A DNA stretch of 64,000 bases, taken from positions 24,366,001-24,430,000 of the forward strand of contig CM068748.1 in NCBI GenBank assembly GCA_035084275.1. The letters are read 5' to 3'. Positions 4,797 through 60,987 of this stretch are shown in pieces. Positions within the stretch are counted from its first letter, which is position 1. Each line of letters opens with the position of its first letter. The stretch comes from Hydrolagus colliei. Taxonomy: Eukaryota. The translations under genes and the position numbers were made by a program. A model generated the notes under the pieces. It saw only the letters and a list, made by a program, of their open reading frames with translations, had not been told where the DNA came from and made no database searches.

Positions 4797-4982
4797 ATGC
4801 CAAGGGATCCATACGGAAATCATTCTGCCCAAGGGTTTGATCTGGATCGGCCCAAACGTACCAGGACATCCTTCACGGCTGAGCAGCTGTATCGATTGGA
4901 AATGGAGTTCCAACGCTGTCAATACGTGGTGGGGCGTGAGAGGACAGAACTAGCTCGACAGCTCAACTTGTCGGAAACTCAG
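4797..4982 (+). CDS. VAX1: VAX1 exon 2 (homeodomain N-terminal part)
   Basis: ctccag| acceptor and |gtaaat donor. Encodes [63 protein letters not shown] after restoring two missing G (~4815, ~4839). GSIREIIL is VAX1-type; VAX2 has GTIREIVL (from memory). Confidence 0.92.
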
Positions 4983-6922
4983 GTAAATATAAAGCATATA
5001 TATATATACACACACACCATGGCAAGGTCATGCCTGAAACTTGACTCAGGTCCTAGTCACTGCTGCCCAACCACTCAGCTCATCTGCCATTTGAAAGCCC
5101 CCATAAAATGCGGATTTTTAGAAATGTAGGTACCTTGGGTGAAATTTACTCTTTTTTTAGATTTAACCAAAAAAATGTGAAAAGCTATTTTTAAAAAAAT
5201 CATCAAATGTCCCGCACAGATCCTGTGTGTATGTATGTGTGTATGTATGTGTGTTTGTATGGCGAGATTTGTAAAGGATTGGGTATATGTATATATATAT
5301 ATATACCCAATGTATATATATATGTATATGTATATATATATATAAATAAGATATATATATACATACAGGTGGATGAAACTGACAGAACCTAAGCTATAAC
5401 GCTGGGTTAACGAGGAGAAGGTGTGGGGAGAGTGGGGGTTGGGGTGGGGGCGGGGGAGGAGGAGAAAGTGGGTTGTTAACCCTCTAAAAGAGGTTTGGTT
5501 TCCGACAACAAGTTCACACCCTCACAGATGTGTTATTTGATCTGCCATCCGTTTCAGTTATTAGACTCCCTGTGTATCATTTTTAAATTCGATTTGCGTT
5601 TATCTTTTGTTTTAACCTCTTATCCACAGAATGTCTGGGCTAATGGGAATAGACTTTTTAATGAGTGAATGAAAACACATGAATTTCAACACTAACAAAA
5701 GTAAGGGGAGGGTGGGGTGTGTGGTGGGGGGGGAATCAGTTTTCCAACTGAATGCAGGAAGGTTATATTTTATGTATTGATAAATGAGAAATAAAATAGT
5801 AGTTCTTGCCCCCATTTAATCGTGGAAAATATTTAGATTTGACCGTTTCCCGTTGGGTCCCTCGCCCAAACACGATTCTATAGTGGCGTTGTGCTGGTGT
5901 GACTTTGATATGAATGTTACCACAATCAATGCCAACGTCGTGTTGGTGTTCAATAGTTCCAAACTTGTGCGAAACCCACATAGATAATCAAGTGGAAGAG
6001 CGACGTTTGATTCGAGGGTGCCAGCCGATCACTGATATAGAAACATAACATCGGATTTGTCTTTAACCCCAAAAGGAGAGGAGAAAAAATAGTTGTATGT
6101 TGTAATAGACGTGCTTTCAGAAACATCCAGCGCCAGAAATACGTTTAAATTTCCCGAGTAAAAATACACAAGTTGGCAGCGTGTCTCTTGGCCACTTCTG
6201 CTCTGTTGTTATCTCAAGAATTGTCACAGTTATACTTGTATTACCCTGGCACGTTTCGGCATCAGCCGTCTGTACGTGTTTGTATTGACACTGGCCACCG
6301 TGGCTGGTGAGTTGGGAAGCGGCAGGTTAAGTCAAACGGTGTTTTAATTTTAGGTCTGAAAACATCCATCGGGTTGCAGTATTTACTCATCCACCTCTCA
6401 GGCGATCTGACTCCCGAGGCTCGGTGCACAGCTCAAACCATTGTTTCGTTTGCAGGGTTAATTCATTCATTCGTTAATGACTTAAGTGTGTATGTGTTTG
6501 TATTTGTGTGAAATAAGTCTGTGTGTGTGTGTGTGTGTGTGTTGTGTGTGTGTGTGTCCCACCCCCAACAAAAAAAACACCCAACAACAACAGTGACATC
6601 CGTGATAGACTGGGGACAAATAGATACAAATGGTAAATGGTGCAATTGCGACAAGCAAAAGTGGGGCATCACACACACACACACACACACACACACACAC
6701 ACATGGTAAATGGCATTAACGGTACAGACGGTATTAAATCAGGACACGCCGCACAGTGTAACACAAGCAAGAGGGTTGATGTGTAAACGGGTTCTCAATG
6801 GCTGGCAATGTACTGACTGAGTGAGTGAGCTATTACTGTATATTGTCTGTTTCTTTCTCCTCCTCCTCCTCCTCCTCCTCCTCCTCTCCACAAACAAACA
6901 AAACAAACAAACAAACAAACAG

Positions 6923-7403
6923 GTGAAAGTCTGGTTTCAAAACCGACGCACGAAGCAAAAGAAAGACCAAGGGCAAGGACTCAGACGTCAGGTCCACGGC
7001 CTCGGAGACGGCGGGCGACCTGCAGTGTGCTGAGGCTGTTGGAACAAGGCAGGCTGCTCTCCCCCCCGGGGCTGTCCGGACTCCTGCCCTGCATCCCCAG
7101 CGGCCTGGGCGCTGGGCTGCGGGGGCCGGTGGTGGGCATTGGGACCTCACTGAGCGCCGCGACCCTCACGGTGGGCACCCCGACCGTCAGCAGCTCGCAC
7201 CCGGCGCACACCGTCTTCAGTCTGCCCGTCCCCTCTCTGGTGGGCAACGTGGCCAACAGGCTCTCGTCGCCTTGGACAGTCACCGGGCCGCTGACCGGCA
7301 ACTTGCAGGAACTCTCGGCTCGATACTTGAGCTCTTCGGCCTTTTGAACCTTATTCCAGGAACAGCAAAAGGGAAGGGAGTGGACAAGAAACTCATGGAC
7401 TGA
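6923..7403 (+). CDS. VAX1: VAX1 exon 3 (helix 3 and C-terminus)
   Basis: aacag|[24 protein letters not shown]...[24 protein letters not shown]...FSLPVPSL...[21 protein letters not shown]...VDKKLMD*, with TGA at 7401-7403. About four +1 homopolymer insertions must be removed. The C-terminal motifs are VAX1-specific. Confidence 0.9.
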
Positions 7404-7549
7404 CTGGCTTGACTGTCTGACTTCTCTCTGATGGTCCCACAACTGCATCGTCTCTGTTGACTTCACCCAAGGCGGATTTTTTCCCCCCACAGAAACACAC
7501 ACACACAAAAAAACGACAACAACATGAGTTGGAAACCTACACAATAACA

Positions 7550-7703
7550 TTGGGTGGGTGGGTTGGTTGGTGGGTTGGTTGGTTTGGATGGTGGGTTGGT
7601 TGTGGTTTGGATGGTGGGTTGGTTGGTTTGGATGGTGGTGGTTGGTGGTTTGGATGGTGGGTAGGTTGGTTCGTTGGTTTGGTTGGTGGTGGTGGGTGGG
7701 TTG
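7550..7703 (+). repeat. (GGTT/GGT)n low-complexity repeat 3' of the VAX1 stop
   Basis: Direct inspection. Confidence 0.9.
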
Positions 7704-58517: not shown

Positions 58518-58575
58518 ATGGAGCCTCTCGAGGAAGCAAAACACATCAAAAACCTCAGCGCCTTGTCACAGGAAG
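58518..58575 (+). CDS. SHTN1: Shootin-1 (KIAA1598) coding exon 1
   Basis: gaaATGG Kozak context; MEPLEEAKHIKNLSALSQE+G then |gtaggt donor. Joins in phase to 60935-60987. Aligns without gaps to the shootin-1 N-terminus, and its position downstream of VAX1 is syntenic. Confidence 0.75.
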
Positions 58576-59114
58576 GTAGGTGTAACAGTGATTTCAGAAA
58601 CTTAAGCATTCAACAGTTTCTAAAGTGGGCATCAAATGGGCTAAAGATTTTTACTTGTATCTGCCTGCCTTTCCCACCTCTCCTTAGCTCTGGCAGGATA
58701 TATATATATATAATATATATATATGTGTGTGTGTGTACTGTATTATAAAATCTGGGCTTCAATTGATCTGCTTTGCAAAGCTCTCTTAAAGTTAATCATT
58801 GTCAGATTGTGGCTTTAGAGGCAACTCGACAAGGCAGAGTTGGTTTCATCTAACAACAAAAAGTTACTAAACATGACCTAAATAAGACAAAAAAGAAGTC
58901 GCCTTACACCCATTCTTATTCATCTTAAAAGTTTTCAAACTCTCTCCTTCTCACTCTCTCTTTCTGTCTGTAAATCATTTTGTGCTGAATTCAAACAGTT
59001 TCAAAAACTATGGGAACAGGGATCCACTTCAGTGGAAAGGCTGTGGGTGGCTTTGACTAGATGATATGCTCGATTTCTTAATGCTATATTAATCATGTGG
59101 ATAATTAGAAATTA

Positions 59115-59640
59115 ATCTCTGTTTACTAGCTGGGGAGACCTGTGTTCGAATCCAGGCAGGTCAGGGCAAAACCTTGCGTGAGTTTCCTTACTCCACACGC
59201 CTAGTAATAATCCATCCAAAAAAACCACAATAATAAAATTGGTCATTTCAATCCATGACTGTGTGGGGGACGCTGCTGTGCGCGATTGCCGCGATTCATC
59301 CCAAAATATACAGTCAATTTACTTTACAGTATATTCTGTGAAGCGCTTTGGGATGTCGATAAGATGTGAAAAGCGCTGTATCAAATGCAAGGATTATTAT
59401 TATTATTACTAGCTAGTGGTAAATAGGAACCCGAGTTGTTAGTTGATTGGCGGATCGAAAAAATTAAATGAAAAAAAAGTGGTCACTCAATCCACGGCTG
59501 CTTGTGGGACACTGCTGTGTGTATTTGACTGCCATGTTTCGACCAGAAACTGTACAGTTATTTCATTTTACAATGTATTCTGTCAAGTGCTTTTTGAGAT
59601 GTGATAAGGCACCATATCAAATGCCAGTTTTATTATTATT
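59115..59640 (+). mobile_element. Short SINE (59128-59410) nested in a long-subfamily SINE
   Basis: TTACTAGCT direct repeats at 59123-59131 and 59406-59414. Confidence 0.75.
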
Positions 59641-60934
59641 ATACTTTAGTTGTAGGAATTTGGGGAGAGTATAAGGAATCATTGCATGGGACCTTAGCTG
59701 GGATCTATAAAATACCTCCCCGAACTTAGGGAAAACTTCATTTTTCGAGCTTGCAGAATTCTTAAGTTCTCAAATTTACAGAAAACCGGTTTCACGGGGA
59801 AAGCTATTTTGCTTATGAATGTGCCGAATTCAGCATGCCCTGAAATATAATATATAACATCAATCTAGGAACGTCAATGGAATTTCCCCCCCCCCCCCCA
59901 CCCAATTGCCTTGAAGATTCCTATGTGAAAAAAAAATGATTGGGTCGTCTCAATCAGTGTTGAATGGATACAAGTCTATGAAACACAAAACATGATTATG
60001 GTGCTATGTTGATAAGGATTTATGGTGTTGTTCATATGTTGTAAAGATGGTTAATGAGAGAAGTGGACTCTGCCTTTAGTGCAGTAGGATTCATATTTTA
60101 GAGGCTCAGAGTGCATTACATTTTGCCTGTAAATACACTTGACATTAACCGGGTTTAATGGCAACAAAACTGGAGAGTATGCACTAACCTAGAGGAACAA
60201 CCAAAGGTATATTGTTTCCTAATTTCTCCCGATTTTAACCATTTAAAAAAAAATCCTTTTTAGTGCCAGAAAAGCCGGGATATGTTTTGAATTGAAATAT
60301 AATTTCAGGATATTCCATTTTTTTTACTGGAAGAATGTAGCTGCTATAAAGGGAGGCAGGTTAACATATTTCTGCGTTTGACAGTCAAGTTAAAGTGGAT
60401 GGTATGGAGCGGGTAGGACAGGGGAAAATAGGTATTTCAATGAGTAGATGGAAGAGTAGTGATACCTTTTCACTCCTCACATTTCACATCTGTGGATGTT
60501 AGAAGCGTAGACGTACACAAAATATATAGCACAAATGGAAGGCATTTGGCCCATCATGTTTGCCCTGGCTGTTATCAAGATACCTGATGTCTTAAGCCAT
60601 TCTCTGAAACTCCATCCCACAATCCTTACTCACCTCCTCCTTCAAGACCCATCTCAAGAACTTCCTCTTCGACCGTGCCTCCGGTCACCCTCCTATCGCC
60701 TCTCCGCCCTCGATCCCTCCTGATCCCAACCCTCAGTCCAGGTCCAGATCCCCGACTGTCCAAGGCCTTGTAATAATAATTACAAATGTAATTTATTATC
60801 ATTGTTGTCAACCCATTGTATGAATTACTGCATTCAACAGCAGAAGTGTAGCCTGATTCACTGTACTTTACACCTCGTGTGATGAGATTCAGTAATCATC
60901 ATAAAATGTTTTCCTTTATTTCCTATTGTTTTAG

Positions 60935-60987
60935 CAACTGTCGAGTTTGAGGAACTCATCAAGGAAAATGAGCTGGTGAAGAGTGAG
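60935..60987 (+). CDS. SHTN1: Shootin-1 coding exon 2
   Basis: Polypyrimidine-ttag| acceptor, (A)TVEFEELIKENELVKSE, |gtaagt donor. Compare human AIGEYEDLRAENQKTKEK (from memory). Confidence 0.78.

Follow-up and report, generated by a model that had tools for sequence, protein, structure and literature searches.

Which of the vertebrate B subunits of the vacuolar-type ATPase (V-ATPase) is encoded by an intact gene that follows Vax1 in a chimaera? The locus lies on contig CM068748.1 of Hydrolagus colliei (assembly GCA_035084275.1), in a stretch of 64,000 nucleotides (positions 24,366,001 to 24,430,000 of the forward strand), which we call the window and whose own numbering is used below. An earlier note on this DNA had proposed that the gene is a third whole-genome-duplication copy of ATP6V1B, linked to VAX1, lost in the mammalian lineage and a candidate for an extra vertebrate paralog. 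From the analyses below, we concluded that it is very probably the atp6v1Ba ortholog of holocephalans; of the three paralogs arising from whole-genome duplication, Ba is the one linked to VAX1. The proposal of a third copy is therefore most likely right, but this copy is the published atp6v1Ba (PMC3827601) and no new candidate; the chimaera gene is a predicted extension of the range of a known gene class, not a new class.

Müller et al. (2013; PMC3827601) divided the vertebrate B subunits into three groups, B1, B2 and Ba, all of which are found in spotted gar, and assigned their origin to the two early vertebrate genome duplications. Ba adjoins vax1 at a distance of 9.9–22.9 kb in five fishes, B1 adjoins vax2 at 2.5–5.5 kb in the four species measured, and B2 resides in another paralogous segment (8p22 in human). 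Gar and teleosts have an intact Ba, and B1 was lost in teleosts. The loss of Ba suggested earlier holds for mammals but is not specific to them, as the gene is lost in all the sarcopterygians studied; coelacanth, painted turtle and human retain remnants of it as a pseudogene (PMC3827601). The genome sample of these authors contained no cartilaginous fish. Our literature search returned no later report on a chondrichthyan Ba, which is no proof of absence as most subscription journals are outside this search; and ATP6V1B, VAX1 and SHTN1 do not occur in the one searched supplement file of Lamb 2021 (PMC8040251).

The ATPase gene consists of 14 exons on the + strand, from the ATG at 23127 to the stop codon ending at 51253. 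Splicing by script gave 1515 nt encoding 504 amino acids, where the only stop is the terminal one and all 13 introns have GT-AG ends; the intact 504-aa reading frame reported earlier was thus reproduced. Exon 1 (23127–23235) provides the ATG and a short N-terminus of Ba length. It is followed in the spliced gene model by exon 2 (37407–37462), exon 3 (38260–38358, carrying G75, which is altered in the medaka mutant tintachina), exon 4 (38925–39018, carrying the Ba marker A102), exon 5 (40688–40765), exon 6 (41416–41555), exon 7 (43622–43723), exon 8 (44825–44922), exon 9 (45342–45465, carrying Y275), exon 10 (47071–47221), exon 11 (48515–48597), exon 12 (49532–49636), exon 13 (50677–50806) and exon 14 to the stop (51108–51253, carrying D460 and ending without a C-terminal PDZ motif of the B1 type). 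Immediately upstream, 22800–23126 on the + strand is a CpG-rich stretch and likely promoter (GC 0.61 and observed/expected CpG 1.04 in the 500 bp around 23050). We also observed that intron 1 (23236–37406) spans 14.2 kb, half of the gene, and that the remaining introns are of 0.3–2.1 kb.

The product belongs to the V-ATPase subunit B (ATP6V1B) family by its ATP-synt_ab and VA_C domains and its high identity to solved B subunits. The corresponding Pfam models (PF00006 and PF22919) were matched by the near-identical protein of Callorhinchus milii and by exon 14 of the window, and the ESM Atlas returned family-level matches only. Four C. milii UniProt entries (A0A4W3K141, A0A4W3JQL4, A0A4W3JN89 and A0A4W3JQP4) represent the same gene; all of them lack the N-terminal part and bear the name 'Vacuolar proton pump subunit B', with no paralog given. 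Three of the entries agree with exon 14 at 100% of its residues, and A0A4W3JQL4 agrees with the window protein at 402 of 405 residues, the substitutions relative to the C. milii entries being A237S, N336S and H447Q. The protein by itself therefore points to a holocephalan, either C. milii or a relative.

The position of the gene carries most of the assignment. On the + strand of the window, Vax1 is followed by the V-ATPase B gene and then by shootin-like exons, as the earlier note had stated, with the shootin gene being putative and named by position. Vax1 exon 2, which encodes the N-terminal part of the homeodomain, occupies 4797–4982 and exon 3 to the stop occupies 6923–7403. From the Vax1 stop to the ATPase ATG there are 15,724 bp, so that the gene lies directly downstream of Vax1, on the same strand and within the range of ∼10–23 kb; the shootin-like exons begin 7.3 kb downstream of the ATPase gene. 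In this placement it resembles gar and teleost atp6v1Ba (also called vatB1), which lies downstream of vax1 at 10–23 kb and near a shootin gene, the shootin neighbour of the chimaera gene being putative. Zebrafish has three shootin paralogs (shootin1, 2 and 3), of which shootin1 is on chromosome 17 (PMC6704158), the same chromosome as atp6v1Ba (PMC3827601), and we counted this in favour of Ba.

Could this gene order be an assembly artefact? The assembled Vax1 contains six single-base frameshifts and has N gaps in its neighbourhood, both indicating low local sequence quality. However, the only N runs in the whole window are at 1933–2071 and 4455–4654, upstream of Vax1 exon 2, so the triplet of Vax1, ATPase and shootin-like exons is free of scaffold gaps and its order and strand were recovered on rereading the ungapped sequence. 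The order of vax1 and Ba has, moreover, been published for five ray-finned fishes (PMC3827601). A misjoin is thus very improbable. We also searched the window with the 504-aa protein by tblastn and obtained the 14 exon matches, with the next match at E 1.3; no second B-subunit copy or remnant was found within the window.

As a Vax gene likewise precedes B1 (PMC3827601), and as R39 is common to the window protein and the B1 rows of the published alignment, we considered whether the gene is ATP6V1B1 and the Vax gene a misidentified VAX2. Judged from its sequence, the homeobox gene is VAX1, in agreement with the earlier identification: its exon-3 tail scored 88.4 bits against a named catfish VAX1 and 43.8 bits against a named newt VAX2, in a comparison where 10 of 19 matches were looked up and six of these had a species name. 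Exon 2 is identical to a frog Vax protein at 49 of 51 residues. At 15.7 kb, the spacing exceeds the 2.5–5.5 kb of B1. From the 2013 alignment read by eye, we observed that none of the 10 residues common to all five B1 rows is present in the window protein, which also lacks the PDZ tail of mammalian B1. Among solved structures (PDB), the best match was mammalian B2 (883 bits), while a chain with B1-type residues scored lower (821 bits). The gene shares with ATP6V1B1 its fold, its family and a place downstream of a Vax gene, but with a VAX1 neighbour instead of VAX2 and 0 of 10 B1 markers it does not fit B1, and on these comparisons of neighbours, residues and scores the ATP6V1B1 reading is scarcely conceivable.

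The distinction from B2 required a closer inspection of the protein. We labelled the Ba and B2 rows of our alignment by their N-termini, following PMC3827601. The window protein lacks the long B2-type leader; the three elasmobranch B2 proteins, from sawshark, white shark and electric ray, all have it, together with S102, F275 and E460. The window states A102, N29, Y275 and D460 are those of 18 of 18 Ba rows, and they occur in 1, 5, 5 and 6, respectively, of 24 B2 rows and in none of the three shark and ray B2 rows. Like gar and teleost Ba, the window protein has a short N-terminus, the conserved glycine at residue 75 as in medaka Ba, A102, Y275, D460 and ∼95% core identity; the bounds of exons 7 and 12 are as printed for gar Ba (PMC3827601). 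It differs from ray-finned Ba in lacking S39, V368 and the E..R tail, in changes of its own such as C272, E408 and T487, and in its host, which is a cartilaginous fish. With ATP6V1B2, those of sawshark, white shark and electric ray included, it shares a core identity of 94–95%, the same exon plan, a similar C-terminus and probably the same organelle role; B2 is distinguished by S102, mostly F275 and E460, by the greater length of its leader and by a locus not beside VAX1. In total, the window protein matched four of nine Ba-typical sites in addition to the N-terminal length.

Several of these comparisons speak against an assignment to Ba. The majority Ba state is missing at sites 21, 39, 368, 498 and 502. 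The core identity is nearly equal for Ba (95.0%), frog B2 (95.4%) and shark B2 (94.8%). There was also no holocephalan B2 or B1 and no elasmobranch Ba among the matches listed, which is weak evidence as these were cluster representatives with at most 15 members each. A search with the N-terminus of coelacanth B2 gave 43 matches, with two elasmobranch B2 and no holocephalan B2 among them, and an exon-1 homolog search for a shark or ray Ba over 18 candidates gave none at E ≤ 10 and was uninformative.

We also constructed maximum likelihood (ML) trees from the window protein and 44 named proteins chosen from 319, namely 18 Ba, 24 B2 and 2 Ciona. We excluded fragments, aberrant gene models (coelacanth, lungfish and gar entries included), redundant species and records without a name. 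The tree proposed in the earlier note was to include B1, lamprey and amphioxus; ours held none of these, B1 because a motif scan found no B1 protein among the named proteins collected, and their lack counts against the assignment. In the core tree, the window protein joined Ba (65/58) inside a group (94/94) that also held five frog B2 proteins. When the five frog rows were removed after the fact, the support for the window protein with Ba was 73/77. Against these two results, the full-length tree joined the window protein to frog B2 (94/78) inside a group with Ba (97/91), and the grouping of the window protein with Ba was unstarred in the trees. The shark and ray B2 proteins, in turn, formed a starred clade of their own that excluded the window protein in all three trees.

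The approximately unbiased (AU) test did not reject a union of the window protein with all B2 (p 0.28 with frogs and 0.45 without) or with elasmobranch B2 (p 0.20 with frogs and 0.28 without), which also weighs against Ba. The ∼95% core identity to every vertebrate group leaves only a thin tree signal, and another sign of low tree power is that B2 did not come out as a clade in the ML trees when these were rooted with Ciona. The three trees and the six clade tests did not decide between Ba and B2, with the trees leaning towards Ba.

These data bear on the possibility that the locus is that of Ba but the coding sequence derives from B2, either by relocation of B2 or by gene conversion from B2 over a part of Ba. 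The unrejected B2 placements, a B2-like C-terminus and I368, and the lack of a holocephalan B2 among the matches listed are compatible with it. However, three of the five non-Ba sites (I368, E21 and K502) match Ciona, and these states look ancestral rather than B2-specific. The N-terminus is of Ba length and without the B2 leader, four Ba states are present that shark and ray B2 lack, and it would be unparsimonious for a relocated B2 to land in exactly the slot that Ba occupies in gar and teleosts. Lacking the leader, having A102 and lying outside the starred shark and ray clade, the protein does not behave as an ATP6V1B2, even though the AU test does not reject its joining that clade, and we consider a B2-derived coding sequence improbable. 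Synteny is the main ground for assigning the gene to Ba, with the VAX1 neighbour at 15.7 kb, together with the Ba-length N-terminus, the 0 of 10 B1 markers and the distinctness of shark and ray B2.

In both trees that held them, the frog B2 proteins grouped with the window protein and Ba (94/94 and 97/91). They share R39 and D460 with the window protein, yet keep the B2 leader and S102, and the grouping is probably homoplasy. A more speculative and unlikely reading is that chimaeras retain Ba without B2 and/or B1, these having been lost, or that their Ba has undergone partial conversion by B2, and that the pull of the frog 'B2' reflects real Ba ancestry. If true, the chimaeras would add a third combination of reciprocal losses to those of teleosts (which lack B1) and tetrapods (which lack Ba), and a Ba sequence would survive under a wrong name in a tetrapod group, the frogs.

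If the orthology to Ba holds, Ba and its linkage to Vax1 date to the last common ancestor of jawed vertebrates. This age was inferred by PMC3827601 from bony vertebrates alone, and the chimaera supplies the missing data point from a cartilaginous fish. The sister pair among Ba, B1 and B2 was left open, with Ba and B1 slightly favoured from synteny (PMC3827601). In the 2013 alignment, we noticed by eye four residues common to Ba, B2 and the window protein versus B1, lamprey and amphioxus, which lean towards a sister relationship of Ba and B2. As the chimaera sequence has changed slowly, it could be of use in deciding which two paralogs are sisters.

In V1, the B subunits are part of the A3B3 head, where ATP hydrolysis drives proton pumping (PMC3827601). 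Medaka Ba is broadly expressed, most strongly in the CNS and the pronephros, and is required for lysosome acidification, which is blocked, with lethal outcome, in the tintachina mutant (Ba G75R; PMC3827601). Chimaera Ba would take the usual place of a B subunit in this head and so help to drive proton pumping. Its most likely role, with a matching expression, is in the broad acidification of organelles, brain included, like that of medaka Ba and mammalian B2, and not in apical secretion of the kidney type. We favour an organelle role over an apical one from the lack of the B1 C-terminal PDZ motif, the CpG-rich putative promoter region and the broad expression of medaka Ba.

The names found in databases are a poor guide to this gene. 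From the homolog lists, we observed that ray-finned Ba proteins, those of bichir, sturgeon and paddlefish included, are named inconsistently as 'kidney isoform' or 'brain isoform(-like)'. The warning of mislabelling in the earlier note proved justified by these NCBI names and by the mammalian B2 as best structure match. Work on V-ATPase B in the gill and kidney of sharks, rays and chimaeras may thus measure Ba under the label of B1 or B2.

Vax1 exon 2 matches the Pfam Homeodomain (50.9 bits) and has two frameshifts (near 4815 and 4838), and exon 3 has four (near 6972, 7013, 7343 and 7376). The motifs GSIREIIL, KKDQGKDS and SSAFEPYSR, quoted earlier as diagnostic of VAX1, are present only across frame switches. 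The frameshifts are probably consensus errors; a Vax1 pseudogene is less likely, as the six single-base indels lie mostly at short runs and 49 of the 51 exon-2 residues are intact. Exon 1 was not found within the window by tblastn and may lie in an upstream N gap. The ESM Atlas gave no match for the Vax tail.

The two shootin-like exons are on the + strand. The first coding exon (58518–58575, 58 nt) has an open frame and a GT donor, and the second (60935–60987, 53 nt) has AG and GT bounds and continues the frame; together they hold 37 open codons (37 aa). Their family is putative, being taken from position and from the 58/53-nt sizes, which presumably fit those of SHTN1 exons.

Elsewhere in the window, we observed four low-scoring Rfam tRNA matches (16146–16203, 42817–42888, 55486–55557 and 62348–62420) at the heads of a scattered repeat, and these look like copies of a tRNA-derived short interspersed element rather than tRNA genes. 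The six-frame listing also revealed broken fragments resembling reverse transcriptase or integrase at 31369–32529, 29416–29918, 56400–56990 and 18000–19560, in intron 1 and intergenic DNA, which we take to be long interspersed and long terminal repeat-type elements.

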